This document shows, one piece after another, positions 18,612 through 64,000 of a stretch of DNA of 64,000 nucleotides. Made by a program: the position numbers and the translations under genes. Below the pieces are notes generated by a model. That model was not told the DNA's origin. It saw nothing but the letters and a program-made list of their open reading frames with translations, and did no database searches. Within the stretch, counting starts at the first letter, position 1, and the number at the start of each line of letters is the position of its first letter. This stretch comes from Candidatus Poribacteria bacterium. GTDB taxonomy: Bacteria > Poribacteria > WGA-4E > PCPOR2b. Location: contig OZ244950.1 in the NCBI GenBank assembly GCA_965222435.1, positions 4,075,983-4,139,982 of the forward strand. Direction: 5' to 3'.

Positions 18612-18647
18612 ATCACTGAAGAATCTACCCACAAATTACAGTTTCAG

Positions 18648-19034
18648 CTATTGTTCAATGATCCAATGGTTAAGCCTCATCTGCTCACCGGGCGGATAAA
18701 AGACCAACAGATTCTTTTTGTATCGCTTGACATATATGAATTTCCGATCTACTTTTGTGAAGTACAGCCAAATCCGGCCGGTCCACGGTTCCCCAATGTT
18801 TTTTCCAAAAGAAGCATCATAGATTTTGTCGGGGGAACCAAAGATGGCTCGAACTTCATCGGGATTCATCCCGGTATGCAGCCGATTCGTGTTGTCTATA
18901 GTAAACGTGGTGCGGCCTGGATATGAGTAGGTATAGGACGTCGCACAACCTTGTTGGAATACTGTGAATCCAATTGCGATTAATATTAGAACTAAATATT
19001 GATTGACCCGCATAAACCTCAAGCAGTAGGCCAT
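18648..19034 (-). CDS. hypothetical lipoprotein
   Basis: Signal peptide ending in a lipobox-like FQQGC. Real start is probably the internal Met (MRVNQYLVLILIAIG). Confidence 0.4.
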   Translation of the reverse strand: MAYCLRFMRVNQYLVLILIAIGFTVFQQGCATSYTYSYPGRTTFTIDNTNRLHTGMNPDEVRAIFGSPDKIYDASFGKNIGEPWTGRIWLYFTKVDRKFIYVKRYKKNLLVFYPPGEQMRLNHWIIEQ

Positions 19035-19062
19035 TCGAGATTTCCCTTCACGACCTGAATTA

Positions 19063-20466
19063 TTACTTTATCATAACTCGAAGCCTTGCTTCCGCAGCGT
19101 TTTGCATGTCCATGTAAGGCTCAAAATCCGCCAAGATCTGCTCCCGGCACGCCTGTGAAATTGGAACATTGATAACCTGTCCCGGCTTTTTTAGATCAAA
19201 GATCTTTAGTCGAAGATTTCTAGATTTGAACACCTCTGGCAGAAACATGAACACGCCTCTTTGGGCAATATCTTTCATTCTCACTGACTTTTCAGAGAAA
19301 GAAACAGGCATCATCCGCATTCCCCTAAGTACCTCCGGGATAGCATTACCTCCATCCATCAGTTCAAGATCCTGCAAATCTGATTTAAATTCGTAAGTGT
19401 ATGAACCTTGGTAATAGGTGCCGGAGTAACCAGCTGCCGCCGCTCCAAGAATATTTAAGAGAGTGCTACCAGTCGTTTGACCGACGTCTGGCTGGACATG
19501 GATTTGCACGAGTGGACTATACTTTCCCACATACTCTCTCCATTCCATTAAGAGGTCTCCCAAAGGATCATACATCTCCTGTTGAGGGACCCCTGCAGCA
19601 GCTTCCCTGCTCCGACGTTTCTCAGTAAGAGGTCCCGTTGAAATCTTTGTGAGAAAATACCGACGCGACGGAGTAAGGATCTGTATATCGAAACCAGGTG
19701 CCTTTAGCGTATAGTTGGAGGCTTTGCCACACCGTTCGGCTGCCCATTTCATGCCTTCTATCGGAAAAGGGTCTTCAGGAGCAACAGGCAAAAGGGTGGG
19801 AGGGGGCGGTTTTTCATGGAGTCTGCCACGGGCTTGGTCAAGGAGGGGCAGGGCAAGGGATATTAGAATACTTCCTGAAACTCCGGGACCTCTTGATGGA
19901 AAGTCACCAAATGTGTTGATGGCGATGACCTCGGAATCCATGTTAATTAGGGGTCCCCCTGAATTACCGGGGTTAATGTTCACATCTGAAATAATGGCAC
20001 GTTCCTCAACTTTACTTACGATCCCAGATGTGAGAATACGGGTTTGATTTAGAGGACTCCCTATGGCGATAACTCTTTCGCCCTCGAATGCAATATCGGC
20101 AGCTGGTCTGTCGGCGATTTTAAGGATTGGCAGTTCCTTTACGGCTTCTGGGGCAACCCGTAGAACGGCAATATCCTTTTGATTGTCTTCAGCAAGAAGT
20201 GTTGCCGGGATGCGGATGTTGGGATTTAGCTGCACTGAAATACGGCTTGAAGAAGCAATCACATGGGCATTGGTAAGAATGAGCCCACCCTTGTCAACCA
20301 AGAAACCACTTCCATGTCCTCTGTCTCCGTAGATCGTAAAAACTGCGTCTTTCATTTTACGGAATACAACGGCTTCTTCAGACACTTCCCTTGCCGCGGG
20401 GACCTGACTGCATACGAGGCTGCAAAGGATTAGACTTACAATTAACGTCAGAGATTTGGCTTTCAT
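19063..20466 (-). CDS. secreted trypsin-like serine protease (S1 family, DegP/HtrA-like protease domain without an obvious PDZ)
   Basis: Signal peptide; catalytic His context LILTNAHV; Ser context GNSGGPLIN. Confidence 0.65.
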   Translation of the reverse strand: MKAKSLTLIVSLILCSLVCSQVPAAREVSEEAVVFRKMKDAVFTIYGDRGHGSGFLVDKGGLILTNAHVIASSSRISVQLNPNIRIPATLLAEDNQKDIAVLRVAPEAVKELPILKIADRPAADIAFEGERVIAIGSPLNQTRILTSGIVSKVEERAIISDVNINPGNSGGPLINMDSEVIAINTFGDFPSRGPGVSGSILISLALPLLDQARGRLHEKPPPPTLLPVAPEDPFPIEGMKWAAERCGKASNYTLKAPGFDIQILTPSRRYFLTKISTGPLTEKRRSREAAAGVPQQEMYDPLGDLLMEWREYVGKYSPLVQIHVQPDVGQTTGSTLLNILGAAAAGYSGTYYQGSYTYEFKSDLQDLELMDGGNAIPEVLRGMRMMPVSFSEKSVRMKDIAQRGVFMFLPEVFKSRNLRLKIFDLKKPGQVINVPISQACREQILADFEPYMDMQNAAEARLRVMIK

Positions 20467-20560
20467 GATGAGTGTCTCTCCCGTAGACTAACGCAAGCTA
20501 TCGCCCAAAATCCCAGCGAGAGGATAGGCATAGCGTTCAGGAATTCAATGAACTAATGAG

Positions 20561-22660
20561 CTAGAAAGTTGCGCGTCCCACGCCTGTGTTCCCTGCCGCA
20601 TCGGTGACGCGAATGGTGATGGTGTGTTCACCGGCTGGTAGGGAGTTCGTATGAAGTGACAAGGTTTCGCGCTTGGAGTCGAAGATGCCATCGTCGGGGA
20701 AGATGACCTGCCAATGTTCATCGCTGTCGATTTTGTAAACCGCTTTCTGAATGTAGCTGGCTAGATCCTCCACCGTACAGGTAATCTGATGGGTTTGATC
20801 TTCATTCGCCGTCGCAGTTATATCGGTGACCATTGGTTGGCTGTTATCAATATCGAAGGGGTCGCTAATCTTCTCGGTAGACTTCGCAAAGTTGGGAGGA
20901 TTGCTGAGTTTGTCCGTCGCGTTGACCTTGATGACGTAACGTCCGTCGGACATTGAGGTGGTGTCCAGAGCATAGCTGGTCTTGTCCAACTCTTTTTTCA
21001 AGAGTTTCCAATTTGTCTCATCAATCCCCTTGTAATAGACGTTGAACTGCAACGTATCACTATTTTCGTCCTTCACCTTCCACGAAGCGGTATATTTTGT
21101 ATTATCTCCTCCCGAATTGGAATTGGAGGGGGTCCGACTTTCCCGTGGTCTACGAATACCTTCGGGCGGACTGGGACTTTCGGGGGCACCGCCCCGCCGG
21201 ACTTCAATCGAGGTGAATCGCGGTTCGGTATTGGATTGAACGGAAGCGACGGTCACTTTTTTGAGGACAGGCGTCGCAGAAACGGCACTCGTCGTGAGCT
21301 TGGCACGCCACTGAATATATCGTGCGGAGGCACTGGTAATCTGGGAGGTTTCGGGGTCTGTTAGTTCTTCTGACCAGTCATTCCATGTGCTATTGGGTTT
21401 CTCCGTGTTGCCAGTACGAGTGGCAAAAGAGATAGCTGTCCCTTCGGGTGTGACACCCTCCCACGATAACTTACCCCACCGCGAAACGACTTTGGTATCG
21501 TGCGCCTTGGATTCAAGCGTTCCCTCAGCGAGGTAATCCGATTTCAATTCAAAAATCTTCCCGGCGTTTCCTGTGGCAAGCAAGAGCCGATCTGAATTTG
21601 CGGTGCGATGAATCGCCAAGATCTGGCTCGCGCTACATTTGCCCTTCAGTACAGAATCGCCATCTGTGTTGACCCAGTACAACTTACCACTATCCCCTGT
21701 ACCGACATAAAGACCTTCCTCCGAATCAAACACCATTGCCAGAATCAAGGGATCAGGTGCTTCCCACATAACAGATACGATGCCATCCGGCTGAATTTTG
21801 TAGACCCTCGACTTCTTTTCTTCGGGATTACGACCCCCAGGACCCGGAGGACCGGGAGGCGGGGGCGGACCGCCGGGCTGTGGTGCTGCTGTCGTGATGG
21901 TTCCTGCATAGATTAACCCCTGTGCCCCAATAACAAGCCTGCGCACCTCTTTCTGCCCCGTTTGGTAGATCACAGTAGCCGCACCGTCCTCCGTTTTGAC
22001 GCTATAGATAGTCCCTTTGCCGTCGCTACCGGCATACAGCATTCCCTGATGATAGAGCAAACATAAAATGTTACGTTCGTCGGAATCATAGAGGACGCTG
22101 GTCTGTCCATCGGGTGTAATCTTGTAAATTTTCCCACTGGTGCCGGTCGATGCATATAGATTCCCTGCCTCATCAAAGGTCATCGCCCAAACGTACTTCT
22201 CCTCCGAACTGAGTATCGTTGTCGGCGGGGTGCTACTGTCCGTGAGCTTGTAGATTAGCCCGTCCGGGGCTGTACCGGCATAGATGTTGTCATTGGAATC
22301 AATAGCCAGTGTCAAGATTGAAACCTCTGGCGAATCGTAAAAGAGCGAGGATTCACCATCGGTATTGATCCGATAAATCTTGCCACTGTTTCCTGTGCCC
22401 GCGTAGATGTTTCCTTTGGAATCCTCAGCGAGGCACCAGATATATATCTCTTTGGTATCCTCAAAGAAGGCATCCAATTTAGGAGCCAACATGAGCTCGC
22501 CTCTACTTGAGAGCGAAACATCTTTGGGCTTACCAGATTCAAAGTCCTTTTGGTTTTGTTGTTCCCAGATCCGTGTCGTCACCCCGAACACTGGTAGAAG
22601 ATGGATCGAAAAGAAAACGACGGCGACACTAAAAATATAAAAAACACGGTAAAACGCCAT
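20561..22660 (-). CDS. beta-propeller repeat protein with Pro-rich linker and C-terminal Ig-like region
   Basis: At least 7 repeats of about 40 aa (NIYAGTGNSGKIYRI, NIYAGTAPDGLIYKL, NLYASTGTSGKIYKI, MLYAGSDGKGTIYSV …). N-terminal TM/signal. PPPPGPPGPGG linker. Confidence 0.5.
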   Translation of the reverse strand: MAFYRVFYIFSVAVVFFSIHLLPVFGVTTRIWEQQNQKDFESGKPKDVSLSSRGELMLAPKLDAFFEDTKEIYIWCLAEDSKGNIYAGTGNSGKIYRINTDGESSLFYDSPEVSILTLAIDSNDNIYAGTAPDGLIYKLTDSSTPPTTILSSEEKYVWAMTFDEAGNLYASTGTSGKIYKITPDGQTSVLYDSDERNILCLLYHQGMLYAGSDGKGTIYSVKTEDGAATVIYQTGQKEVRRLVIGAQGLIYAGTITTAAPQPGGPPPPPGPPGPGGRNPEEKKSRVYKIQPDGIVSVMWEAPDPLILAMVFDSEEGLYVGTGDSGKLYWVNTDGDSVLKGKCSASQILAIHRTANSDRLLLATGNAGKIFELKSDYLAEGTLESKAHDTKVVSRWGKLSWEGVTPEGTAISFATRTGNTEKPNSTWNDWSEELTDPETSQITSASARYIQWRAKLTTSAVSATPVLKKVTVASVQSNTEPRFTSIEVRRGGAPESPSPPEGIRRPRESRTPSNSNSGGDNTKYTASWKVKDENSDTLQFNVYYKGIDETNWKLLKKELDKTSYALDTTSMSDGRYVIKVNATDKLSNPPNFAKSTEKISDPFDIDNSQPMVTDITATANEDQTHQITCTVEDLASYIQKAVYKIDSDEHWQVIFPDDGIFDSKRETLSLHTNSLPAGEHTITIRVTDAAGNTGVGRATF

Positions 22661-43261: not shown

Positions 43262-44560
43262 ATGGCTACGCTAAAAGCCGGTGCTGCACAGACCAATATC
43301 ACGCCGCCACTCGGCGCGTACCTTGCAGGTTCACTGAAGGCGCGCCATGCGACGGAAGTCCACGACGAACTCCACGCAAAGGCACTGGTACTTGATGATG
43401 GGACCACGCAACTCGCCTTTGTTATCTGTGATGTTATCTGCATCCCCCGCGAAGTATGTGACGCCGCCAAAGCCTTGATCGCGGAGCGGGTCGGGATTCC
43501 GGGCGAACAAGTGCTGATAGCGGGCACACACACCCACTCCGCGCCTGCAATGAAGCCGGGGTTTGAAACCATTCCCCACCAAGGCTACCTCGATTTCTTT
43601 TCGGTGCGCGTCGCCGATGCCGTTCAGCTAGCAGCGGGACGGGCGCAGCCGGCGAAACTCGGTTACGGCGTTGGAACAGAGTCGCGCTGCGTGTTCAATC
43701 GGCGGTTTCGCATGAAGGACGGCACGGTAAAGATGAATCCGGGGGCTAACAATCCCAACATCGTTGAAACCGTGGGACCCACTGATCCAGACATTGCCGC
43801 GCTTTTCGTCGAGACAGTTGATGGTCAACCGATAGCCGTCCTCGCTAACTATGCTCTACACTATGTCGGTGCGCCGGGTCACACGGTTTCCGCAGACTAT
43901 TTCGGGCTGTTTGCCGAAGAGATTCAAAAGATGGCAGGCGCAGGATTCGTCGCAATGCTCTCCAACGGTTGTTCCGGCGACATCAATAACATCAATGTCC
44001 ATCACCCGCTGACGGACCGACGCCCCTTTGCCCAGACACGGAAGGTCGCCCGGATAGTTGCAGCAGAGGTGTGGCGAACGTGGCAGACCACCCCAATGCA
44101 CGATGACTTGGGGCTTTCGGCGGCACAGACGGAAATTACGTGCGGCATACGGAAACCGACCAGCACAGAACTCGCCGAGTACGAGGCAAAATGGGCAAAC
44201 GCAAGCGATGATCCGACTGTCGATGAACTCTACGCACATGAACGCATTATAGTCAACGGGTGGGAAGATACCCGCACGACACCGATCCAAGCCTTCCGTA
44301 TCGGAGACTGCGGGGTCGCTGCATTGACGGGAGAAATCTTCTGTCAATTCGGTATTGACCTCAAGGCTGCCTCGCCGCTCAAGCCGACGTTTATCATCGA
44401 GCTTGCCAACGACTACACCGGCTACGTCCCAACCCCGATTGGGCATGAGCATGGCGGCTATGAGACATGGCTAGCGCGGAGCAGCTACCTCGCTCCCGAC
44501 GCCGGTGGACAGATGGTTGATGCGGCGTTGCAATTACTGAACGGTTTCACCGCCCCGTAA
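43262..44560 (+). CDS. neutral/alkaline ceramidase-like N-terminal domain family hydrolase (hypothetical)
   Basis: N-terminus KAGAAQTNITPPLGAYLAG…HDELHAKALVLDDGTTQLAFVICDVI resembles the ceramidase-like N-domain family. 432 aa. Confidence 0.45.
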   Translation: MATLKAGAAQTNITPPLGAYLAGSLKARHATEVHDELHAKALVLDDGTTQLAFVICDVICIPREVCDAAKALIAERVGIPGEQVLIAGTHTHSAPAMKPGFETIPHQGYLDFFSVRVADAVQLAAGRAQPAKLGYGVGTESRCVFNRRFRMKDGTVKMNPGANNPNIVETVGPTDPDIAALFVETVDGQPIAVLANYALHYVGAPGHTVSADYFGLFAEEIQKMAGAGFVAMLSNGCSGDINNINVHHPLTDRRPFAQTRKVARIVAAEVWRTWQTTPMHDDLGLSAAQTEITCGIRKPTSTELAEYEAKWANASDDPTVDELYAHERIIVNGWEDTRTTPIQAFRIGDCGVAALTGEIFCQFGIDLKAASPLKPTFIIELANDYTGYVPTPIGHEHGGYETWLARSSYLAPDAGGQMVDAALQLLNGFTAP

Positions 44561-48566: not shown

Positions 48567-50807
<2,241 letters not shown>

Positions 50808-55427: not shown

Positions 55428-56315
55428 TCACGCTGCGTCCGGCAGCCAAAGAAACGAAAGCACCTGATTCATGCGGGGTAATCGGCGGGATTGCTCAATG
55501 AGGGGTTGATCTGATTGGGTCGAACACCAATGAGACAACGGAACCTTCCGCCGGCGTTCTTTCACCTCTTTCGATTCACCTTTGGTAAGTAGGCCGGCGA
55601 CCGAGTCGGGATGGAGGGGTTTGTTTGTGTCAAGATAGCAATCGCTGTTCTGACGAAACCGCTCTGAATAGGCAAAATATTTAATCTGTCCTCGCTCAGA
55701 CAGTACAATCGCACAGACATGGGAACTCAAACGGGTGTAGCGGATGGCTGTGCTGGTCAAAGAGGTGGAATAATTAGCAGCGAGGGCATCAATCGCCGGC
55801 AAACCGATTTCAGGCAGATCGGTAGCGTCCGCTCGGAAAATGGGAGAGGGCATCAGCAGCTCAACTGCGAACTGATTGGCACGTTGTTCCTCTGATCGGT
55901 GCGAATCAAATCCACGCAGATCCTCGCGCTGACAGCGGTGCTGAGGGACAAATTCCGCCACCTTGCTCTCTTCACCTGTGGTGGAATTATGTCTCTCGGT
56001 TTGACCACCATCCAAATGGTAATGCCCCAATTCGTGAGCGATTGTAAAGTTTTTTCGGGACTCTGATTGAATCAGATTGTTGAGCAGGATGCCCCAAGCA
56101 TCGCCGACCCGCATTAAACAACCATCGTACTGGCTTTCCATCTCCCGTTCCCAAACGACGATTTGCAGCTGTTCCGCAATTTCTCGCGGTTGGATCGGGA
56201 TGCCCTGAACGTTTAGTTCACGCAACAACTGCCGCGCACTCTCAGCAGGTTCTAGAGCGGGTTTGGAGGACACCTGTTTTGCAATCTGACCTTTTCGGGA
56301 AGGTCTCTGATTCAT
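55428..56315 (-). CDS. ImmA/IrrE-family zinc metallopeptidase
   Basis: FTIAHELGHYHLDG (HExxH) in the position typical of the ImmA/IrrE family. Immediately downstream of an XRE HTH gene. Confidence 0.6.
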   Translation of the reverse strand: MNQRPSRKGQIAKQVSSKPALEPAESARQLLRELNVQGIPIQPREIAEQLQIVVWEREMESQYDGCLMRVGDAWGILLNNLIQSESRKNFTIAHELGHYHLDGGQTERHNSTTGEESKVAEFVPQHRCQREDLRGFDSHRSEEQRANQFAVELLMPSPIFRADATDLPEIGLPAIDALAANYSTSLTSTAIRYTRLSSHVCAIVLSERGQIKYFAYSERFRQNSDCYLDTNKPLHPDSVAGLLTKGESKEVKERRRKVPLSHWCSTQSDQPLIEQSRRLPRMNQVLSFLWLPDAA

Positions 56316-56344
56316 GTTCAGGCAGCAGATCCTTCGTAATTGCT

Positions 56345-56677
56345 CTATTTCTCGTTTTTGTCTTTAAGAAATTGGTAGAACTCGATCAGCGTTTCCTTAT
56401 TTTCCTCGGAAAGATCCATGATGCCTCTAAACATAACACTGACTTTCGGATCTGCCAAAAGATCATCGTAGCCATGCTCCTTTTTACCAAGCAGGTAGTC
56501 CGTAGTAACTTTCAGCGCATCAGCGAGGCTCGAAAGCGTGTCGAATGCCGGTTTGCGGGCACCAGACTCAAACTGTGAAATCGCCGCAGGGGTCAGTTTT
56601 GCCGCTTTGGCGAGTTGTGTTTGTGTCATTCCGAGTCTATCACGACGTTTCTTAATACGTGTTGAAACAGACATAAT
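56345..56677 (-). CDS. XRE-family helix-turn-helix transcriptional regulator
   Basis: IKKRRDRLGMTQTQLAKAAKLTPAAISQFESGARKPAFDTLSSLADAL HTH_3/XRE motif. Start taken at the Met preceded by AAGGAGGT rather than the longer ORF-track start. Confidence 0.65.
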   Translation of the reverse strand: MMSVSTRIKKRRDRLGMTQTQLAKAAKLTPAAISQFESGARKPAFDTLSSLADALKVTTDYLLGKKEHGYDDLLADPKVSVMFRGIMDLSEENKETLIEFYQFLKDKNEK

Positions 56678-57039
56678 CATATACCTCCTTACTGGGTTAG
56701 GGAAAAACGGTGTACGATCGCAGAAAAGCGTGTTTATTGCGCTTTCTAACGATTGTGATTCCCATTTTAACATATTACGCCGTTCCAGTGCAAGGTCTAA
56801 AATAGAATTAACGAAAATTTATGTAAAAACGATTCACGCATCACGTTTCACAGATGAACTAATGAACCAATAGCGAATATAAATCTAAAAAAAACATACC
56901 GTCCATAATACTCACTTTTGTGAATTAGATCCGTTTTGCATCTTGACAAGACTTTGCGACTATGATAGAATCTGACAGATCTAAATACGATAGCATATTA
57001 TGTGCCGGTCAGCCTATTAAAAAATTCGGAGGAATCACC

Positions 57040-60000
57040 ATGATCATCAAGAGATATTATTACATCAGTCTATGGCTTTGCATCCTTGCACTATTGTCTC
57101 CGCACGGCAGTTTCGCTGTTGACGAGCAGCTGTCTGTCGGGCTTTCGGAGGTTGCAGTCAAAATCAGTGACAAAGTCGATATCGGTCGAATGCGAAAAGA
57201 CATCGCTCGACTCTCCAATCTTCCCACCCGCGTTACTGGCTACGATGAAGCCGCATCAGGCAGCAAATATATCTTCGATCAATTTGTCGAGATCGGTTTA
57301 CAAAACGTCGAGAGCCGCGAGTTTCCTGTTTCTGTTCCGATAGACCACGGTGATGGGAAAGTAGAAATTCTCTCCGAAGATCAAACGCTTCTGAAGACTT
57401 ACCGAATCTGGTCCATCTGGCCCAACCTTGTTCGCACCTCCTTCCTTCCCAACGGCGTCTCTCATGTAGTTGTTCAAGGCGAAACCTTAGACGGCATTGC
57501 CAAATCCTATCGAGTTGACCCGCAAGCCATTTTAGCTGACCCGCATAACCAATACCTCCGTGACCAAGCAACTGATGGCAGCGATAACGATGATGATGGT
57601 GAAATCGACGAACCGGGCGAGTTAGTGCTGGTCGAAAACAACTCGCTCTTTATTCCTACCGGCGGACTGACCGCCCCCCTCTTTTACGGCGGAAGTGGTG
57701 AACTCGCTTCGTTCAACGGTAAAGATATCGGAGGTTTCTGGCACAAGGTTGAACCTGACGATACGCTGGAAGACCTCGCCCATCGTTTTCGTATCGGTGT
57801 CGGTAGCATCACGGACGACGTTCTTAACGGTCATCTCCAAAAGACGCAAGATGGCATTGACAACAATGAAGACGGGCAGATTGACGAATACGGTGAGATT
57901 CCCCCGCTAACTGAGATCGCGCAATGGGATACCGACGGCATCGACAACGATGGTGACGACTTCGTAGACGAACGCCCCGGCGACGCGACTGATGGTATCG
58001 ATAACAACAACGATGGGCAAATTGACGAAGAAGGCGAGTTTATCGCCGCCTATGAATCCAGCATCTTTATTCCCCAAGGTAGTGTTGCACTCATTGACTT
58101 CAACTCCAGCACCAAATGGATTAACGCCGCAATGCTTGGCGCGAAAGCTGTACTTTTCATCGAGCCAGAGACCACGATCCGCGGGGAGGCTGAGAACAAA
58201 TTTCTGACGGTCCCTGCCAACATCCCCCGCTTCTGGATTGCTAAGGAGGATGCCGGCGAACTCTTGGCTATGCTTGGTGAAGGGGCAACACAAGTCGAAG
58301 ACTCTCGGTCTACCGGAGCGGAATCGTCCTCTCAGAAACTTTATGCGCGTCTCACCAGTACCATTACTTGGGAACAGCGTATTGGGCAGAACATTCGTGG
58401 TTTCCTTGAAGGTGGCGACCCAACCCTAAAGGACGAATTGGTCGTTATCACCGGCTATTACGACTCAATGTCTGTTGTTCCCGCGATGGCACCCGGCGCG
58501 GATCCCACCGGCGGCATTGCCACGTTGTTGGAACTTGCTCGCATCTTTAGCCAAGAGGAATTCCGCCCGGGCCGCTCCCTTCTGTTTGTCGCAACAGATG
58601 CCCACTTTCAAGGGCTGGGTGGTATGCGAGCATTTATGGAAGGGATTGGTCAAGATATCGTCGGACGAGAAGCGGATTCGCCCGGCACACCGACAATGCG
58701 CGGGCTGCGTCGCGGTTTAAGTACTGACCTCTTTGAGTTTGAAGAATTAGGACGCAAGCTGCTACTGTCGATCGACCGGAATGTGCTGGTAGACCTACCC
58801 CCGAACTTCTTCCACGATGTCCACGCACTCAAAGCAAATGTCGATTCCCTAGCAACAACCCTCTCCGATTTGCAGACGACAAAGGGAAACATTGACTCGT
58901 TGCGTAACGCCCAGCGTGAAGCAAAAGAGAAAGAGAAGAAAAAACTCGAAACAACTAAAAAACGGGAGAAGCAGGGATTTACCGAAGAGGAAAAATCACG
59001 ACTGGGGGTCAACCTCGCGAAGTTCAAAAAGGATGCGCTGCAGACCACTCAATTCCTTCGTTCAATGCTTCATCGCACCCTAAGATTGCGTTCACAGGCA
59101 TTGGAGGAGTGCCGCGAAACCCAGCGTGAACTGATTGAACAGATAGCCTTGCCGATGGCTCGGTTGGATGTCTGGGCAATCAACAAATTGGTAGCAGATT
59201 TGGCAGCAAAACGAATTGAAGGAAAATATGCACAAACGCCAGATAGCAGCTATCTCGCACCTAAGGAAAGGGAGGAGGGAAGTTATTATTTACCGACACC
59301 GAGTGACCTACCATCGCACTTGGAGATGGATCTCCAGCGACTCTCGGAAAACTTGCAGGATTGGGAATTTGAAGATCCACGGAAGTTCACCCTCCAGTAT
59401 GCCCAGGAGAAGTTGTTAGACCGCCATCTTGACTTTAAGGGTTTGGAACGAATCAAGTCTGCCCGTAGGGTTGTCCACCGCGCCGAAAAATCTCTGGAAG
59501 CCTACATCGAAGAAGAACGACAACTCCTTGAACGGGCACTCACAAACATTCCCACAACCAGCAGCGCAGAGGATCGCATCAAAAACGCCATCACTCAGTT
59601 AGGAGCTCAACCGGATCATGTCCCCCAAGGCTTTGTTGATGAGCTAAAACTCTTCCTCAATGAATCAACCCTCAAGCAGTTCGAGATAGTCCAGAACCAA
59701 CTCCACCAGAAATTGGAGATGATGGACCCGACAACGGGAACAGCAACCTCACAAGAATTAGACCAAGTCCTGATTGATGACCTGACCAGAGATAAACAGA
59801 GTATCCTCGAAACCGCGATGCGTAACGCTCGCCTTGAGCACTATCGAATTGAATCCCTCCTCATACGCCATGCGTCGCTGAACCGTCCCTACCTCGCCGA
59901 AGAGGCACTCGTCCTCCGCCACTATCTCCCTGAAGATGCCGCAGACCGAGCGATGGCCGTCCGAGAACAAATCTTTGGTCAGCTTGAAGAACAACATCTA

Positions 60001-63000
60001 CTAGAGATGGTAAAGCGGCGAGCCAAGAACGATATTGTCGAACTCCAGAACCTGCTGAACATCCTTGACCGCCTCGACCGCGATCCGGACGAGGAGACCA
60101 AGATCCTGCTGCGCGACAACCTGCTCACCATGCGTAACGCTCGATTCCGCAATCTACAGAAACGGGTGGAGAAGATTGCACGCATCAGCGAATCGGAATA
60201 CACCCGGAAGATACGTTCTATCGAACAAGCAATCGCACTGCAAGACATCTTCAATCGCTACTACACCTCTCTCTTTATCTCTATCGACCTCTCCAGCCAG
60301 AACGACCAGTTCGGCGTATTCAACAAAGGTTGGTTCTACGACCAACAGCCCGAATTTGTTCTCCGTCGCGAGTTCGCTTCCATCGGAAATAAACTTGCGG
60401 AATACGCGCAGGGTGCCGATTTCGGTGAGCGTATCCAGAAACTATGGACATTCACTGACGACCAGATCCGCCAAGCGGTGATGAATACCCAGTGGACAGT
60501 TGCAGCTGGCATCGATCCGAAAAAAGCCATCGAAGGCAAGAGCCTTGAAAGCTTAGTTACCGAACATTACGCAACATTGGTCGGGCTCTCTGGGGTTTCT
60601 CGATTGATGAAGATGCAGTTTGAACAGATGAAAAATCAGGGCGAACCTTCCGAGGATATGCTCAAGGATATGGACTACATCCGTAAGGAGGTTGAACGAT
60701 TCATCCGAAACGATATCCGGGAGGCGCGGAAGAACCGCAAGAATAGGGTTCGCCTGCTCAATCGCTTAGATGCGATGCTTGCCCTGCGCAACGAGGACCC
60801 GTCCGAATTTACGCAAGAGGAAGTTGATGATATTAAGGCACTCATTGAGATTGCCGGTTTCGGTGGTGAAACCAACTTCGTCAATGCAATCTCCGCCAGC
60901 GGCGGTAAGATCTGGAAGACCTACATCCCCGGTAAAATTGCCTTTGATAGCGAGGTGGCAACCCTCACCGGCTTTACCGGAATCGCTTTTGCCACAATTG
61001 ATGATGCGCGCGTGCTGACCGATACCCCGCTTGATACAATTGACCGAATGGATTTGAGCCAAGATGGTGCTTTGCACAAACAGGCGAAAACCCTCGCCGC
61101 TGTTCTCATCCAAGCGATGCGCGATCCGAAGATGCCCACCGCCGCGCGGGTGGGGAACTTCTACTGCAACCTATTTGGCGATGTAGTTGAATATGATGCC
61201 CGCGAGAGTGCGCTTCCAAACAAGCCGGTGGAATATCCTGTCCTCGCCTTACGGAGTCAGCACAAAACCATGATGGGGGTGCGAGGCGATCTCATCGCAA
61301 TGGGAGACAATAAAGGTAACTTTGAGGTCGCAGGCCTCGCGATGGAGGGGCGTGCCACCATCCGCCTCAAAGGAACGCAGGAGGTGGAAGCCTACATCCT
61401 CCACCCGGATTCCGGTGATATTGTCTACGCACCGGATCTCGGCAACTTCGGCGCGAAACTTTTGCCGAACCTAATACCGATCAACACCCATCGTCGTGGG
61501 TGCCGTATTGTGGTTTTCCCCTGCGTGTCCACGACCATCTTCGACCTCGTTGATCAGCGATACCTACGGACGCTTCGTGAACTGGAAGTTTATGATGCTG
61601 CAAGCGATAGCTCACCAGAAAAGTATGGTGTGTCGAAACCGTGGCAACAGGAAGGTGTCTCGGCGACTGAGCCAATTGCGCTCGTCTATTCGGAACCCAA
61701 CAGTCGTATCAAGGTTGGCATGGCGTATGGACAAATCGGCAAACGGTTGCTGTTGATTAAAGCAAGCAAGAGTGGAACGAAGAACCCTACACTCTATACT
61801 GGGGAAGGATTTGTTGTCCGTGAGAACGGAAGCATTCGCGTGACCCCATACGTTGTTGTCCGCGACATGTGGTGGCTCGATGAGAACCGGGCAAGTTTGT
61901 ATAAGCGGTTCGGTATCAGCAGTGATCGGCTCGATCAGCTCCACCAATTCGCCAACGAACATCTGAATCAGGCGGAGGCTGCCCTCGCCCGAAAAGACTA
62001 TCAGCAGGCACTCAAACTCGCTCGCGCCGCTTGGGGATACGAATCCCGCGCCTACCCCGATGTGAAGAAAACGGGGAATGACGTGGTCAACGGTGTGATG
62101 TTCTATCTCGCGCTCCTGATCCCGTTCGCCTACTTCATGGAACGGTTGATATTCGCCTTCCCCACCGTCCAAAAACAGATTATGGGGACAGGCGCGATTT
62201 TCCTCGTCGTATTTTTCTTCTTGGCACAGGTGCACCCCGCGTTTCAGATTACTACAACCCCGGTTATCATCCTGATTGCGTTTGTCGTCCTTGCATTGAC
62301 GGCAATTGTGATCAGCATCATCGTCCGGAAGTTTGAAGAACAGGTGGAAAAAATTAAGCAGGAGGGCTCACAGGTGTACAAGGCGGACGTGGGACGTTTG
62401 TCTGCCTCCGCTGCCGCTTTCAGCTTGGGTATTTCCAATATGCGTAAGCGGAAGGGGCGTACCATCCTCACCTGTAGCACACTCGTCATTCTCACCTTTA
62501 CGGTCATCTCCTTTACATCGGTGCGTACCTTTATGCACCCCAACAGCACTAACCTACCTTCAGTGACGCCGCGGTACACCGGGATGCTTATCCGAGATCA
62601 GTATTGGAATCCGCTTGAGGAACCCGTTGTCAACTCAATCACGAATGATTTGCAGAAAACGCAAATCGCTGAGAAAGATTTACGGCTACTCCTGAGGAAA
62701 CGATTGAGTCAAAAAGGTAAATCTGGAGAGCAGATTGACGTAGAAATTGAAGCAATCACAGCCCAATTACGTCAGCAGGGAACATTGATAGAACAGGGTG
62801 AAGAAACCATATTGCGAGTGTACAACATCGTCGCACCACGCGCGTGGTATCAGTCTGCAGGAACCGGTGATCAGTCGTTTGTGCAGCTAGAGCGCACCGC
62901 CAACCCGCAAGATCCCGTACCGCCTGTCAATACCACCACCGGTCAGCCAAAGACCTACTCCGCCACGATGCTGGTCGGGATGAGTCCAAATGAACCCGGT

Positions 63001-64000
63001 GTCACAGGAATTGACCGCTACCTCCAATACGGTCGATGGTATCACCCCGACGATGAAGAGGAGTGGCCCACACAATGGCCCTACGCTTGTATCCTGCCCA
63101 AAGGTATGGCGGATCTGCTCGGCATCACCGAAGCAGATATGGGCAAAGCGACCGTCTCCGTATACGGCGCGGATTTCACCGTTACCGGCGTCCTCGGTAT
63201 CGGCTTCAAAGACCTACAGGATAACGATGGCGAGGAATTGACACCCGTTGACTACCAACTGATGCAGCAGCAGGAGGCGCGAGGCGGCGGCGCACAGGGG
63301 CAGAACCAAGCCATGGAGGGAGAATTAGAAAAATATATCCATCTACCTCCTGACGCTGTGGCTATCCTTCCGTATGAGGTGGTAATGAATCAGGGTGGAA
63401 CGCTACGCTCGGTTGCTGTCAACATGGAAACACAGCCCGGCGATCCAGCAGTTTTCAGTGCCGCAGATAAACTGGACCTAATCATGGCACCTCTGATGAA
63501 TCGAATCGCACTCGACTTCTTCGTTGGAAAAGATCGGGACACCTATCTCTACAGCTCAATCGGAATGACCTCTTTCTCTGGTATGGGTAATCTGTTCATA
63601 CCGATTCTCATTGCGTCGTTGATTGTTCTGAACACGATGCTCGGTGCGGTCTACGAACGGGTCCGTGAAATCAGCATCTACAGTTCTGTCGGGCTTGCCC
63701 CTGTGCATATCGCCTTCCTATTCCTCGCAGAAGCGTGTGTGTATGCGATTGTCGGTGCTGTGCTCGGTTACTTGCTTGGTCAGGCTGTTGCAACCGTCCT
63801 CGTCAATTTCGGCTTACTCGCTGGATTGACCCTCAACTACTCGTCAATGTCAACAGTGGTAGCAACCATTATTGTGATGATTGTCGTGATTGGAAGTACA
63901 CTGTACCCGGCAATTAAAGCCAGTCGCATGGCGGTACCTGACATCGAACGGAAATGGCAGCTGCCGGAGCCTGAAGGCGACGAGTGGCACTTCGATCTCC
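57040..64000 (+). CDS. giant multidomain envelope protein, 3'-truncated by the window (at least 2,320 aa). Contains a signal peptide, two LysM-like domains, four EF-hand-like Ca-binding repeats, an M28-family peptidase-like domain, about 1,000 aa of alpha-helical/coiled-coil sequence, three TM helices, and an FtsX/MacB-type permease module (TM1, about 330-aa extracytoplasmic domain, TM2-4)
   Basis: Frame 1 is open from the ATG at 57040 (RBS GGAGGAATCACC) to the window end. No frame-1 ORF is listed in the track because there is no stop in the window. LysM-like VVQGETLDGIAKSYRVDPQAILAD and VEPDDTLEDLAHRFRIGVGSITDD. Repeats DNDDDGEIDEPGE / DGIDNNEDGQIDEYGE / DGIDNDGDDFVDERPGD / DGIDNNNDGQIDEEGE. 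M28-like GYYDSMSVVPAMAPGADPTGGIATLLELARIF…LLFVATDAHFQG. FtsX-like NMRKRKGRTILTCSTLVILTFTVISF… and …LYSSIGMTSFSGMGNLFIPILIASLIVLNTMLGAVYERVREISIYSSVGLAPVHIAFLFLAEACVYAIVGAVLGYLLG. Confidence 0.7.
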   Translation, partial: MIIKRYYYISLWLCILALLSPHGSFAVDEQLSVGLSEVAVKISDKVDIGRMRKDIARLSNLPTRVTGYDEAASGSKYIFDQFVEIGLQNVESREFPVSVPIDHGDGKVEILSEDQTLLKTYRIWSIWPNLVRTSFLPNGVSHVVVQGETLDGIAKSYRVDPQAILADPHNQYLRDQATDGSDNDDDGEIDEPGELVLVENNSLFIPTGGLTAPLFYGGSGELASFNGKDIGGFWHKVEPDDTLEDLAHRFRIGVGSITDDVLNGHLQKTQDGIDNNEDGQIDEYGEIPPLTEIAQWDTDGIDNDGDDFVDERPGDATDGIDNNNDGQIDEEGEFIAAYESSIFIPQGSVALIDFNSSTKWINAAMLGAKAVLFIEPETTIRGEAENKFLTVPANIPRFWIAKEDAGELLAMLGEGATQVEDSRSTGAESSSQKLYARLTSTITWEQRIGQNIRGFLEGGDPTLKDELVVITGYYDSMSVVPAMAPGADPTGGIATLLELARIFSQEEFRPGRSLLFVATDAHFQGLGGMRAFMEGIGQDIVGREADSPGTPTMRGLRRGLSTDLFEFEELGRKLLLSIDRNVLVDLPPNFFHDVHALKANVDSLATTLSDLQTTKGNIDSLRNAQREAKEKEKKKLETTKKREKQGFTEEEKSRLGVNLAKFKKDALQTTQFLRSMLHRTLRLRSQALEECRETQRELIEQIALPMARLDVWAINKLVADLAAKRIEGKYAQTPDSSYLAPKEREEGSYYLPTPSDLPSHLEMDLQRLSENLQDWEFEDPRKFTLQYAQEKLLDRHLDFKGLERIKSARRVVHRAEKSLEAYIEEERQLLERALTNIPTTSSAEDRIKNAITQLGAQPDHVPQGFVDELKLFLNESTLKQFEIVQNQLHQKLEMMDPTTGTATSQELDQVLIDDLTRDKQSILETAMRNARLEHYRIESLLIRHASLNRPYLAEEALVLRHYLPEDAADRAMAVREQIFGQLEEQHLLEMVKRRAKNDIVELQNLLNILDRLDRDPDEETKILLRDNLLTMRNARFRNLQKRVEKIARISESEYTRKIRSIEQAIALQDIFNRYYTSLFISIDLSSQNDQFGVFNKGWFYDQQPEFVLRREFASIGNKLAEYAQGADFGERIQKLWTFTDDQIRQAVMNTQWTVAAGIDPKKAIEGKSLESLVTEHYATLVGLSGVSRLMKMQFEQMKNQGEPSEDMLKDMDYIRKEVERFIRNDIREARKNRKNRVRLLNRLDAMLALRNEDPSEFTQEEVDDIKALIEIAGFGGETNFVNAISASGGKIWKTYIPGKIAFDSEVATLTGFTGIAFATIDDARVLTDTPLDTIDRMDLSQDGALHKQAKTLAAVLIQAMRDPKMPTAARVGNFYCNLFGDVVEYDARESALPNKPVEYPVLALRSQHKTMMGVRGDLIAMGDNKGNFEVAGLAMEGRATIRLKGTQEVEAYILHPDSGDIVYAPDLGNFGAKLLPNLIPINTHRRGCRIVVFPCVSTTIFDLVDQRYLRTLRELEVYDAASDSSPEKYGVSKPWQQEGVSATEPIALVYSEPNSRIKVGMAYGQIGKRLLLIKASKSGTKNPTLYTGEGFVVRENGSIRVTPYVVVRDMWWLDENRASLYKRFGISSDRLDQLHQFANEHLNQAEAALARKDYQQALKLARAAWGYESRAYPDVKKTGNDVVNGVMFYLALLIPFAYFMERLIFAFPTVQKQIMGTGAIFLVVFFFLAQVHPAFQITTTPVIILIAFVVLALTAIVISIIVRKFEEQVEKIKQEGSQVYKADVGRLSASAAAFSLGISNMRKRKGRTILTCSTLVILTFTVISFTSVRTFMHPNSTNLPSVTPRYTGMLIRDQYWNPLEEPVVNSITNDLQKTQIAEKDLRLLLRKRLSQKGKSGEQIDVEIEAITAQLRQQGTLIEQGEETILRVYNIVAPRAWYQSAGTGDQSFVQLERTANPQDPVPPVNTTTGQPKTYSATMLVGMSPNEPGVTGIDRYLQYGRWYHPDDEEEWPTQWPYACILPKGMADLLGITEADMGKATVSVYGADFTVTGVLGIGFKDLQDNDGEELTPVDYQLMQQQEARGGGAQGQNQAMEGELEKYIHLPPDAVAILPYEVVMNQGGTLRSVAVNMETQPGDPAVFSAADKLDLIMAPLMNRIALDFFVGKDRDTYLYSSIGMTSFSGMGNLFIPILIASLIVLNTMLGAVYERVREISIYSSVGLAPVHIAFLFLAEACVYAIVGAVLGYLLGQAVATVLVNFGLLAGLTLNYSSMSTVVATIIVMIVVIGSTLYPAIKASRMAVPDIERKWQLPEPEGDEWHFDL

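Follow-up and report, generated by a model that had tools for sequence, protein, structure and literature searches.

The window, the 64,000-nt stretch of DNA analysed here, runs out inside a giant gene. From an ATG at 57040, preceded by GGAGG at 57028–57032, the forward-strand frame is free of stops for 2,320 codons up to the window edge (57040–64000), as an earlier sequence-only reading of this DNA had described; by our own arithmetic, taking about three in 64 random codons to be stops, such a run has a chance of ~(61/64)^2320, or ~1e-48. That reading had also remarked that the frame is missing from the ORF list. This is correct, and the sole reason is that the list excludes ORFs running off the end of the source sequence. 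A 98% identical relative supplies the 3′ end, stopping after 2,477 aa, which places ~157 aa outside the window; full-length relatives are 2,420–2,560 aa long. Splitting of the ORF by a frameshift or stop, which the reading had named as fatal to its proposal, is very unlikely, given that 80 Candidatus Poribacteria loci, complete chromosomes among them, hold the gene uninterrupted. The open frame, the 80 loci and the full-length relative together confirm that ectodomain and permease are joined in one chain. We conclude that the gene is real and that its product is a ~2,477-residue membrane protein of sponge-associated Poribacteria. Neither the Pfam scan of the window protein nor the sequence of the full-length relative contains a fused ATPase domain (NBD). 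Structural statements, in the feature list and below, refer to a model of homolog P0142 (38–40% identical overall; pLDDT 86.7, pTM 0.84); the window protein's own model has a pLDDT of 37.6.

55428..56315 (−): ImmA/IrrE-type (CapP-like) metallopeptidase gene (Pfam Peptidase_M78, 2.8e-14; PADLOC capP, 3.5e-58)
56345..56773 (−): XRE-type HTH (CapH-like) repressor gene, divergent from the giant gene (Pfam HTH_3, 4.5e-16; PADLOC capH, 1.4e-20)
56943..56971 (+): candidate sigma-70-like promoter, TTGACA-17-TAGAAT with extended −10 TG (consensus match only, 11 of 12 positions)
57028..57032 (+): GGAGG ribosome-binding site, 7 nt before the ATG (direct sequence reading)
57040..64000 (+): giant protein CDS, aa 1–2320 of ~2,477, leaving the window (open frame, full-length relatives, 80 syntenic loci)
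57040..57117 (+): predicted signal peptide, aa 1–26 (...SFA/VD; hydrophobic aa 9–27, cleavage site inferred from sequence)
57121..57441 (+): M28-like fold, N-terminal segment, aa 28–134 (aligns to P0142 aa 39–100; spliced construct lengthens the Pfam M28 match)
57463..57657 (+): LysM-1, aa 142–206, with one acidic DxDxDG loop (aa 179–194) before the last strand (Pfam LysM positions 1–25 of 43)
57739..58074 (+): LysM-2, aa 234–345, with three acidic DxDxDG loops (second Pfam LysM stretch; lineage-specific insertion)
58075..58329 (+): putative PA (protease-associated) domain core, aa 346–430 (weak Pfam PA; homolog model nearest PA-containing M28 aminopeptidases)
58339..58653 (+): M28-like fold, central segment, aa 434–538, with Y473, D475, D488, H522 and F523 (Pfam M28 positions 1–77; 1AMP alignment)
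58654..60252 (+): helix-rich charged insertion 1 in the M28 fold, aa 539–1071 (composition; mostly absent from compact homologs)
60253..60453 (+): M28-like segment, aa 1072–1138, with D1083 (D179 ligand position) and the next helix (spliced M28 match, alignment)
60454..60864 (+): helix-rich insertion 2, aa 1139–1275 (absent from compact homologs; helical prediction of low to moderate confidence)
60865..61119 (+): M28-like fold, C-terminal segment, aa 1276–1360, with D1322, R1324 and D1328 (spliced M28 match, alignments)
61162..61767 (+): conserved beta-rich extracytoplasmic domain, aa 1375–1576 (homolog model all-beta, pLDDT mostly >85)
61843..62082 (+): helical hairpin into the membrane, aa 1602–1681 (homolog model helices 711–790)
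62080..62370 (+): three linker TM helices, aa 1681–1777 (hydropathy, aa 1682–1761; homolog model)
62371..62514 (+): basic cytoplasmic linker, amphipathic helix and FtsX TM1, aa 1778–1825 (hydropathy, homolog model)
62524..63573 (+): FtsX/MacB-type extracytoplasmic domain (ECD), aa 1829–2178 (sub-cutoff MacB_PCD; alpha/beta ECD in homolog model)
63595..63903 (+): FtsX TM2–4 with ER..EI coupling-helix motif, aa 2186–2288 (Pfam FtsX, PDB sequence matches)
63904..63999 (+): start of the conserved ~190-aa cytoplasmic C-terminal domain (P0001 sequence; remainder outside the window)

The divergent XRE/ImmA pair that the reading placed immediately upstream is borne out by Pfam HTH_3, Peptidase_M78 and the gene arrangement. 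By PADLOC and Pfam, it has the make-up of a CapH/CapP (IrrE/DdrO-like) pair, with genes for an HTH repressor and an M78-type peptidase lying side by side, divergent from the giant gene. From its probable true start, the XRE gene encodes 111 aa, as in L006. Of the 80 loci, 59 retain this gene upstream; the ImmA/IrrE-type gene, possibly a regulator partner, adjoins the giant gene in 25 of the 80 Poribacteria loci (>50% coverage). The CapH/CapP mechanism has been described, and such regulators are reported also to govern non-immune stress genes (bioRxiv 10.1101/2022.04.27.489752).

Domains of the giant protein

The Pfam scan of the window protein placed FtsX, Peptidase_M28 and LysM over their cutoffs and MacB_PCD and PA under them; three of the assignments made from sequence alone therefore stood, whereas MacB_PCD (PF12704) fell short at 24.2 bits (cutoff 27). 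Homologs score 26.8 and 28.3 bits (P0182) with the same profile, and many among 120 relatives listed carry a precomputed PF12704. In fold searches, the top matches listed were M28 structures only, without a match to the MacB core domain. The membrane part is clearer. Pfam FtsX (PF02687) reaches 46.2 bits (cutoff 25.5) over aa 2186–2297, the PDB sequence matches of this module are LolC, MacB and YtrF, and the ER..EI coupling-helix motif is invariant among 25 Poribacteria sequences. Hydropathy scanning places hydrophobic segments at aa 9–27, consistent with the signal peptide that had been claimed, at aa 1682–1761 (three TM helices), at aa 1808–1826 (FtsX TM1) and at aa 2186–2288 (TM2–4). Taken with the homolog model and the basic linker before TM1, these indicate an N-in TM1, a large ECD, TM2–4 and a C-in end. 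The topology drawn in the sequence-only reading, namely a signal peptide, a ~1,680-aa ectodomain, three TM helices, a basic linker and FtsX TM1/ECD/TM2–4, is thus upheld by hydropathy and the homolog model. The FtsX/MacB-type ECD carries a lineage-specific helical insertion at aa 1874–1927.

The nearest PADLOC model to the FtsX membrane module is CARF_LolE_TM (162 bits), with the linker/TM1 stretch matching LolE_TM profile positions 165–254; this match is restricted to TM helices, and there is no CARF domain. We rejected assignment to FtsX sensu stricto, i.e. cell-division FtsEX, because the equivalog models are far from reached (TIGR00439, 11.1 bits, cutoff 255; NF038346, 19.8, cutoff 250; NF038347, 10.1, cutoff 225) and the ATPase gene is non-adjacent in Poribacteria. 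Membership of MacB or LolC/LolE was likewise rejected: those equivalogs are also far under cutoff (NF007826, 24.6 bits, cutoff 966; NF008076, 28.2, cutoff 473; TIGR02212, 13.2, cutoff 362), and the chain has no NBD. Two further domains are conserved. The beta-rich domain at aa 1375–1576, among the most conserved parts of the whole family, has no match in Pfam or PDB sequences, and the C-terminal cytoplasmic domain, conserved across phyla, has no PADLOC match and no meaningful PDB match.

The two LysM-like domains with DxDxDG repeats that had been reported are recovered as two LysM stretches (summed 28.8 bits) and four acidic loops of the DGxDNxxDGxIDExGE type, at aa 179–194, 271–286, 299–315 and 318–333. 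The summed LysM score is 28.8–36.3 bits (cutoff 20.9), with each stretch covering only profile positions 1–25 of 43; by eye, the last LysM strand comes after the inserted acidic loop. Alignment shows that the LysM modules are absent from compact homologs. Judging from sequence, these modules, with their acidic loops of Ca-binding type, probably tether the ectodomain to peptidoglycan in Poribacteria. The Pfam PA match that follows is under cutoff, at 15.4 bits (cutoff 23.9; E 0.0067–0.02).

The M28 Zn-peptidase-like domain of the sequence-only reading holds as a fold, although not as a canonical active site. Pfam Peptidase_M28 scores 33.7 bits (cutoff 21.3) in the window protein, and with the insertions spliced out the match widens to profile positions 1–183 of 193. 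Foldseek with the P0142 model returned the PA-M28 aminopeptidase 2ek8 as the best match (E = 3.6e-24), followed by BSAP, PaAP, TfR and GCPII, consistent with an M28 alpha/beta fold. In alignment with the aminopeptidase 1AMP, Tyr473 stands in place of His97 and His522-Phe523 in place of Glu151-Glu152; the His256 position lacks a His, with the invariant Asp1328 in that segment, and acidic residues are retained at the Asp117 and Asp179 positions. The Tyr473 and His522-Phe523 replacements are invariant in 25 Poribacteria and 119 cross-phylum sequences, and no aligned family member has the co-catalytic Zn set (His, Asp, Glu, Asp, His) and general-base Glu. Since this set is lost in every member, the label 'peptidase module' is doubtful, and the outer domain is peptidase-shaped but probably non-catalytic. 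Note that an invariant polar set remains in the pocket (D475, D/E488, H522, D1083 and D1328), given which a non-canonical metal site and catalysis may exist.

About 670 aa of helical sequence interrupts the M28 fold, as insertions of ~533 and ~137 aa. Composition and structure prediction support the helical character of this charged region (~aa 539–1275), which an M28 core segment divides into two blocks; insertion 1 has a KRED fraction of 0.29–0.40, with Gly and Pro scarce. The coiled coil of ~1,000 aa that had been proposed was not borne out: in a crude home-made test of heptad periodicity, 3.6% of 35-aa windows (aa 560–1290) lay above the shuffled 99th percentile, barely over the shuffled controls, and the region is split by the M28 core. 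A free-standing helical stalk of ~1,000 aa was rejected, the helices being insertions within the M28 fold. They probably act as a spacer or lever.

The family and its gene neighbourhood

The giant protein belongs to a family of 1,213 representatives (50% clustering, E ≤ 1e-30), typically of 1,450–1,700 aa, in which the match extends over ectodomain/TM region and FtsX module alike. Pfam M28 and FtsX occur together in the homologs scanned and are recorded in nearly all of the 120 relatives listed, some of which carry the database names 'Aminopeptidase YwaD' or 'M28 family peptidase'. By source names, members come from Armatimonadota, Fervidibacter, Latescibacterota, Thermodesulfobacteriota and others. 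The fusion of ectodomain and permease is thus not specific to one lineage, a possibility that the sequence-only reading had raised, since ~1,200 clusters in several phyla share it. What distinguishes the Poribacteria version is an enlargement by ~866 aa relative to the rest of the family, and the alignments identify the LysM modules and long helical insertions as lineage-specific additions in a widespread family. A search for publications on the ectodomain–FtsX fusion family found none, in agreement with the earlier remark that the architecture is not a described one.

An ABC ATPase partner had been suspected beyond the window. In 64 of the 80 related loci, a gene for an ATPase of LolD/MacB/FtsE type does lie downstream, at a distance of 4–8 kb and separated from the giant gene by variable insertions, and the operons of other phyla also contain one. 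Its best NCBIfam matches are LolD, YbbA, DevA, MacB and FtsE, with LolD (231 bits) scoring above FtsE (206 bits); it also resembles DarD and bacteriocin-exporter ATPases, and is 70–72% identical across phyla. Genes for a 665-aa protein, a 309-aa protein, a PqqD-like protein and the ABC protein follow in one order in 64–70 of the 80 Poribacteria loci. The same order occurs in other phyla as tight operons, with intergenic gaps of only tens of bases, and is rearranged in others. The conserved partners are an OPT-like 665-aa membrane protein, a ~300-aa cytoplasmic protein, a PqqD-like peptide-binding protein that NCBIfam likens to RiPP chaperones, those of lasso peptides included, and the LolD/MacB-type ATPase. 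Outside Poribacteria the operon has a second, small FtsX subunit; no gene for it lies in the window or, at any of the 80 Poribacteria loci, within 10 kb.

The OPT-likeness of the 665-aa family comes from sequence matches: one of 10 aligned members matches Pfam OPT (PF03169; 5.5e-7), 7 of 120 relatives listed carry a precomputed PF03169 and four are named 'peptide transporter'. The Poribacteria proteins have no Pfam match, and homology of the family to DUF6785 was tested and was not significant. A Latescibacterota member of the giant-protein family carries DUF6785 and DUF6784 after FtsX, i.e. FtsX fused to a polytopic membrane module. Gene order and this single fusion case suggest that the components associate. 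No peptidoglycan hydrolase or amidase occurs among the conserved neighbours in the window, the Poribacteria loci or the other-phyla loci examined, and these neighbours include no MacA/HlyD-type adaptor, LolA-type or EnvC-type partner.

A candidate envelope machine and its alternatives

It is reasonably likely, in our view, that the giant protein serves as large subunit in an as yet uncharacterised system of ABC mechanotransduction, of MacB type (type VII) and with the output domain in cis. The cross-phylum operon would then probably form an ATP-driven envelope machine, of which the Poribacteria protein is an enlarged member. An ATPase dimer on the cytoplasmic face would bind and hydrolyse ATP, moving the FtsX helices and ECD as in MacB, LolCDE and FtsEX, and this movement would be handed directly to the fused ectodomain, which would serve as a scaffold or as a clamp for a ligand, and not as a classical Zn aminopeptidase. 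Going by family names (OPT, PqqD, M28 fold), this ligand may be of peptide type, as the OPT-like and PqqD-like partners and the peptidase-shaped pocket together suggest; the machine would capture it, release it or carry it over the inner membrane. To this, the Poribacteria form would add wall-tethering LysM modules, the ~670-aa spacer or lever and a stress-responsive CapH/CapP-like regulator pair upstream. A fuller version, which we offer tentatively and with doubt outweighing confidence, is a widespread and so far unrecognised machine of five or six parts. In it, a MacB-type motor (large and small FtsX, two ATPases) would mechanically drive a pseudo-aminopeptidase ectodomain, working with a channel of OPT-like type and, in the cytoplasm, with the PqqD-like and 300-aa proteins, to capture or translocate a peptide-type substrate such as cell-wall stem peptides or an exported peptide. 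Such a machine would form a functional class of its own among type VII ABC systems, and the Poribacteria form would be its wall-tethered, stress-regulated giant.

Type VII ABC systems work mechanically outside the membrane, in TolC efflux, lipoprotein extraction and cell-wall hydrolase activation. To our knowledge, every well-studied MacB-type member hands force to a separate partner or substrate, whereas the presumed force-receiving module here is part of the same chain and has a peptidase fold without the classical active site, in a family of about a thousand sequence clusters from several poorly studied phyla with a fixed partner gene set. If the coupling is real, it would represent a new output type for the mechanotransmission principle and, as far as we know, the first case of an ABC motor linked to OPT-like and PqqD-like proteins. 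For sponge-symbiont Poribacteria, one of whose largest conserved proteins this is, it would also supply a role open to testing, with a possible tie to cell-wall attachment and DNA-damage-responsive regulation.

The sequence-only reading had drawn a parallel with FtsEX–EnvC, a system with a literature of its own (e.g. PMC7668044), and FtsEX–PcsB; this parallel, taken literally, would make the LysM modules, degenerate metallopeptidase and helices a built-in EnvC-like switch for a separate peptidoglycan hydrolase in growth or division. Part of the parallel stands: there is an FtsX-type module with two LysM modules and long helical insertions, and by our own comparison the degenerate M28 domain resembles the degenerate LytM domain of EnvC. 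However, the described partners act in trans, their degenerate domain is LytM/M23 or CHAP rather than M28, and in EnvC/PcsB a separate coiled coil docks on the ECD, whereas here the helices are inserted within the M28 fold and heptad coiled coil was not borne out. The LysM modules and helical insertions are specific to Poribacteria and missing from most of a widespread family, which weakens the analogy as an explanation for the whole family; moreover, the conserved neighbours include no amidase or other cell-wall hydrolase, FtsX equivalogs score 10–20 bits against cutoffs of 225–255, and the ATPase is non-adjacent and closer to LolD than to FtsE. We regard such a switch as unlikely. A system for export or maturation of a RiPP-like peptide, in which the PqqD-like protein presents a precursor, the 300-aa protein modifies it, the ABC and/or OPT-like protein exports it and the ectodomain trims or holds it, would fit the resemblance to RiPP chaperones, the kinship of the ATPase to DarD and bacteriocin exporters among others, and the peptidase-shaped ectodomain. 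We give it a distinctly small chance, since the cluster has no conserved precursor gene or known maturase, the tight operons leave gaps of only tens of bases and the canonical peptidase residues are missing; a chromosomal locus, cross-phylum order and the high identity of the ATPase look housekeeping-like rather than like a natural-product cluster.

The fold nearest to secreted PA-M28 aminopeptidases, the OPT-like 'peptide transporter' partner and the database names could instead indicate an active membrane-anchored aminopeptidase for nutrient scavenging, with the OPT-like protein importing the products and FtsX as a mere anchor. This is improbable, because every member carries other residues in place of the general-base Glu and of at least two of the five Zn ligands, and a passive anchor would need neither a coupling-helix motif nor a dedicated, highly conserved ATPase. 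Least probable of all, and very much so, is a defence-like role, in which stress or phage would induce the protein as a membrane effector under control of the upstream pair. The capH and capP matches, the XRE gene adjoining the giant gene in most loci and the proximity of the FtsX module to CARF_LolE_TM fit such an effector, but that match covers TM helices only and the CARF domain is absent, the other operon proteins have no defence-model matches beyond generic ATPase similarity, the other-phyla loci examined hold the operon without CapH/CapP-like regulators, and regulators of this type, according to the preprint cited above, also control non-immune stress genes.

Relation to described families

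MacB, LolCDE, FtsEX, YtrEF and DevCA share with the giant protein a four-TM FtsX-fold permease with a large ECD between TM1 and TM2; the ER..EI coupling-helix motif is likewise common to the MacB superfamily and this protein, as is a LolD/MacB/FtsE-type ATPase encoded separately. LolC and LolE, as two different FtsX-type subunits, parallel the paired subunits in the other-phyla operons. Unlike these systems, the permease of the present family is preceded in the chain by an ectodomain of ~900–1,700 aa and three extra TM helices, and bears the ~190-aa C-terminal cytoplasmic domain. We know of no described MacB-type system with OPT-like, PqqD-like or 300-aa partners, or of any ABC system that has an OPT-type protein as its fixed partner. 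Proteins of the OPT family (PF03169) are polytopic and ~650–670 aa long, like the 665-aa neighbour, although most members of the 665-aa family, including those of Poribacteria, reach no Pfam model.

Non-catalytic M28-like proteins have precedents in transferrin receptor, nicalin and GPAA1, which resemble the giant protein in principle only, being eukaryotic, single-pass or otherwise anchored and without relation to ABC systems. The PA-M28 aminopeptidases (Aneurinibacillus AM-1 2EK8, B. subtilis BSAP/YwaD and P. aeruginosa PaAP) have Glu-Glu and a His ligand where the present family has His-Phe and Tyr. In contrast to them, the giant protein sits in the membrane and shares its chain with an ABC permease, and in Poribacteria its fold is broken by the LysM modules and helices.

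The reading frame and its domains

The giant gene (window 57040-64000, forward strand) translates for 2,320 codons without a stop before it runs off the window edge. GGAGG lies at 57028-57032, 5′ of the ATG, and a sequence match identified a near-consensus sigma-70-like promoter (TTGACA-17-TAGAAT) at 56943-56971. The ORF is absent from the mechanical ORF list because that list omits ORFs running off the end of the source. A scan of the genome collection found the gene uninterrupted at 80 loci, many of them complete chromosomes; 77 of these loci are titled Candidatus or uncultured Poribacteria, and the remaining three are titled ‘uncultured bacterium’. We conclude that the giant ORF described in the sequence-only reading is real, and that neither an assembly artefact nor a frameshift or stop splitting the gene accounts for it. 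Full-length relatives in the protein database are 2,420-2,560 aa long. One of them, the 98 % identical P0001, ends at residue 2,477, indicating that the window leaves out approximately 157 aa of cytoplasmic tail and that no ATPase domain is fused. Residues 2331-2477 of P0001 form a cytoplasmic domain past TM4 that is kept family-wide across phyla, with the motifs WLAPYDLGVS and RESG..SW.RV.R.F..LRKQ.L.WRT; this domain had no match in the libraries searched.

Pfam matches of the window protein, to whose numbering aa positions refer unless another protein is named:
FtsX, aa 2186-2297, 46.2 bits (cutoff 25.5)
Peptidase_M28, aa 451-533, 33.7 bits (cutoff 21.3), covering only profile positions 1-77 of 193
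LysM, two partial stretches, 28.8 bits (cutoff 20.9)
MacB_PCD, 24.2 bits, below the cutoff of 27
PA, 15.4 bits, below the cutoff of 23.9

In NCBIfam and PDB sequence searches, the C-terminal module was nearest to LolC, MacB, YtrF and FtsX, far under all equivalog cutoffs. A hydropathy scan bore out the topology proposed from the sequence alone: a signal peptide, three TM helices at 1682-1761, FtsX TM1 at 1808-1826 and TM2-4 at 2186-2288. The FtsX membrane module scored 162 bits against the PADLOC profile CARF_m8--CARF_LolE_TM, but only 46 against Pfam FtsX, with matches at window positions 62395-62700 and 63500-63999 (aa ~1787-1878 and 2160-2320). The TM modules of the giant-protein family and the CARF_LolE_TM family may be specifically related. 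We considered and rejected the idea that a CARF domain makes up part of the cytoplasmic tail, since a segment-wise search showed that the TM helices alone match. Searches of Pfam, PADLOC and PDB sequences gave no match for the hairpin, the three linker TM helices, the C-terminal domain or the beta-rich domain at aa 1375-1576.

Four acidic loops of the DGxDNxxDGxIDExGE type are present, one after the first LysM stretch and three after the second. Both LysM matches end at profile position 25, and by eye the final LysM strand (‘LVLVENNSLFIP’, ‘FIAAYESSIFIP’) comes after the acidic loop. Given that the last strand comes beyond the acidic loop, the LysM units appear to be complete but interrupted, and the place of interruption would be the loop that in LysM normally borders the glycan groove.

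The M28 fold and its pocket

Since Pfam M28 was matched over only the first 40 % of its profile, we tried spliced constructs. Splicing aa 1065-1140 and 1285-1420 onto 440-545 extended the match to profile positions 1-183 of 193 (42.3 bits), and without the middle piece (aa 1065-1140) it stayed at 1-78. Alignment with compact homologs placed ~866 extra aa of the window protein in defined blocks.

Blocks present in the window protein and absent from compact homologs:
aa 135-203 and 231-345, LysM and acidic loops
aa 539-1071, within which short islands are conserved, and 1139-1275, both rich in helix and in charged residues
aa 1874-1927, helical, inserted within the extracytoplasmic domain (ECD) of FtsX
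elsewhere, a few short blocks

The positions of these blocks indicate that the ‘long coiled coil’ of ~1,000 aa described earlier is two insertions within the M28 fold, rather than a separate stalk. Its helix-rich composition was supported; however, in a heptad scan with a shuffle control only 3.6 % of windows exceeded the 99th percentile of the shuffles, and a canonical long heptad coiled coil is unsupported.

An AlphaFold2 model of aa 1121-2320, built with 25 close relatives, had a mean pLDDT of 37.6, too low for use. The compact homolog P0142 (aa 1-1200), modelled from 47 diverse sequences, gave a confident model with a pLDDT of 86.7 and a pTM of 0.84, and we mapped domain boundaries in the window protein from this model. 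Read from its N terminus, the model begins with an M28 N-terminal piece followed by a PA domain and the M28 core. Next come an all-beta domain and a helical hairpin, the last helix of which enters the membrane; three TM helices and a short amphipathic helix then lead to FtsX TM1 and an alpha/beta ECD.

Relative to the Vibrio/Aeromonas aminopeptidase, ligand His97 is replaced by Tyr473, the general base Glu151 by His522 and ligand Glu152 by Phe523, and the position of His256 lacks a histidine; acidic residues are kept at the Asp117 and Asp179 positions (D488 and D1083). These features are invariant among 25 Poribacteria sequences and hold across 119 sequences from several phyla, a set in which D475, H522, D1083, D1322, R1324 and D1328 are themselves invariant. 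The pocket is thus conserved, yet has no classical co-catalytic Zn site. Our reading is that it serves for binding or is a site of a non-canonical kind, with catalysis also possible. The M28-like assignment stands as a fold, recovered by the spliced profile match, but the general base and at least two of the five Zn ligands are replaced. Overall, what the sequence-only reading observed is confirmed, and its interpretation is partly supported.

Partner genes and the spread of the family

In the closest complete genome (locus L006), the genes 3′ of the giant gene encode, in order, two copies of a 665-aa membrane protein, a WD40 protein, a 309-aa protein, a PqqD-like protein and an ABC ATPase. 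The tandem 665-aa copies lie at 17939-19936 and 20040-22037; Poribacteria most closely related to the window organism carry this gene in duplicate and more distant ones as a single copy, and variable genes such as the WD40 gene are interspersed among the operon genes in the former. Gene order is constant across the Poribacteria loci, with the 665-aa gene present downstream at 70 of the 80 loci, the 309-aa and PqqD-like genes at 68, and the ATPase at 64. Where the partner genes are missing, the locus either sits on a truncated contig or is one of a second paralog group (L018, L066, L071, L074 and L076-78) whose neighbours are unrelated. This second paralog, found in some Poribacteria genomes, is ~2,540-2,560 aa long, 68 % identical and without the downstream operon; at L018 (9938-17614) it adjoins PD40-repeat genes and a gene for a 1,392-aa LRR-cohesin-dockerin protein. 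The top NCBIfam matches of the ATPase are LolD, YbbA, DevA, DarD, MacB and FtsE, and nucleotide-binding domains of the LolD/MacB/FtsE type serve FtsX-fold permeases. An ABC ATPase of the sort anticipated beyond the window is present in these related loci.

Outside Poribacteria, the partner set forms tight operons at L083/L084, L087 and L089, in the order large subunit, 661-665-aa protein, 301-316-aa protein, PqqD, FtsX-domain protein of 209-430 aa and ABC ATPase. At L085 and L088, the large-subunit gene is directly preceded by the small FtsX and ATPase genes and directly followed by a gene for a 647-aa protein; in Fervidibacter, a 668-aa protein is encoded directly 3′ of the large subunit. Compared across phyla, the ATPases share 70-72 % identity, the 300-aa proteins 32-33 % and the PqqD-like proteins 34-43 %. 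The second FtsX-type subunit of L089 (16896-18188) has 430 aa and an extracytoplasmic insert with a faint SLBB match; at other loci this subunit is 209-285 aa and nearly devoid of an ECD. A small FtsX gene is missing both from the window and from the 10 kb around each of the 80 Poribacteria loci. That the second paralog might pair with the first copy, replacing the missing small FtsX, is pure speculation.

Most members of the 665-aa family have no Pfam match. A member with 41 % identity to the one in Poribacteria matches OPT (5.5e-7), and relatives carry the name ‘peptide transporter’ or a precomputed PF03169 match. Pfam and NCBIfam searches with the 665-aa and 309-aa proteins gave nothing beyond one chance-level match (0.015), and a PDB sequence search found no meaningful solved-structure relatives of these two proteins, the beta-rich domain or the C-terminal domain. 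In the 2,120-aa Latescibacterota protein P0224, the FtsX module is fused to DUF6785 and DUF6784, a polytopic membrane module of ~640 aa, and DUF6785 genes lie beside or near the large subunit at L086 (7966-9939) and L087 (3136-5058). This fusion and these neighbours led us to consider DUF6785/DUF6784 homology for the 665-aa partner, which we rejected as non-significant (BLASTP E = 0.014; hhalign probability 0.6 %).

An exhaustive, profile-free search with aa 1121-2320 returned 1,213 representatives of 50 % clusters at E ≤ 1e-30. The best 150 of these are mostly 1,450-1,700 aa long, and match the pre-membrane region (query 150-750) plus the FtsX ECD with TM2-4. Relatives contain M28 (N-terminal part), at times PA, MacB_PCD and FtsX; by source name they come from Armatimonadota, Candidatus Fervidibacter, Latescibacterota and Thermodesulfobacteriota; and their database labels are generic (‘M28 family peptidase’, ‘FtsX-like permease family protein’, ‘Aminopeptidase YwaD’, ‘DUF6785 family protein’). 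The family includes further giant members of 2,700-3,050 aa. With representative clusters in several phyla, the fusion is not a lineage-specific architecture; sequence comparison places the Poribacteria protein, in enlarged form, within a cross-phylum family. Literature searches on Poribacteria, DUF6785, FtsX with M28 and PqqD, and type VII ABC fusions with peptidases found no paper on this family. Each recognisable part is of a known kind; to the best of our knowledge, their combination, the conserved set of partners and the degenerate active site have not been described. Specialists in ABC systems or cell envelopes would want to learn the role of ‘self-contained’ MacB-type machines whose family spans a thousand clusters.

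Proposed mechanism, alternatives and possible upstream control

The architecture, family, operon, ATPase type and loss of the canonical M28 site are established. We consider it likely that the giant protein is an ABC mechanotransducer of the MacB type (type VII) that has a degenerate M28 ectodomain fused in cis and acts in a conserved multi-gene system. Reasoning from established knowledge of MacB, LolCDE and FtsEX, on which reviews such as PMC5985334 and PMC7668044 are available, an ATPase dimer would dock onto the coupling helices, whose ER..EI motif is invariant in the 25 Poribacteria sequences. ATP binding would zip the TM helices together and move the ECD, and this movement would be handed directly to the fused ectodomain, because the latter is tethered through the hairpin and three TM helices beside TM1. 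The small FtsX subunit of other phyla probably pairs with the large one as a heterodimer resembling LolC/LolE. Wall attachment of the ectodomain would, in Poribacteria, come from the LysM modules, and its extension from the helical insertions. Taken together, the pocket with its peptidase shape, the OPT-like partner and the PqqD-like protein suggest that the ligand is of a peptide type; it might be captured for import, exported or merely sensed; we propose peptide handling by this system only tentatively.

A cis-acting, EnvC/PcsB-like regulator of wall hydrolases is a possible alternative for Poribacteria, although it leaves the core family unexplained. Export of a RiPP-like product is unlikely, given that a precursor and a maturase are missing. 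A plain active aminopeptidase would be at odds with both the replaced catalytic residues and the dedicated ATPase, and we regard it as improbable.

The region upstream bears on one further alternative.
55428-56773, reverse strand, divergent pair encoding an HTH_3 protein and an M78/IrrE-type peptidase (Pfam)

These matches agree with the XRE/ImmA pair recognised earlier from the sequence, and in PADLOC the pair matched capH (1.4e-20) and capP (3.5e-58). The CapH repressor is cleaved by the ssDNA-activated peptidase CapP, such that DNA damage de-represses the adjacent operon, and related pairs are described as controlling non-immune stress genes too (bioRxiv 10.1101/2022.04.27.489752). The CapH/CapP-like neighbours are the sole point in favour of a defence effector, which we consider very improbable. 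The HTH gene adjoins the giant gene at 59 of the 80 Poribacteria loci and is absent at the examined loci of other phyla, which hints that the giant gene and its non-defence operon may be under Poribacteria-specific control responsive to DNA damage or stress.

Unrelated genes further upstream in the window include these two.
43262-44560, forward strand, neutral/alkaline ceramidase N-terminal domain (2.2e-10)
48567-50807, forward strand, KatG-type peroxidase (4.2e-70)

That a sponge symbiont carries a ceramidase-like gene is of some interest.
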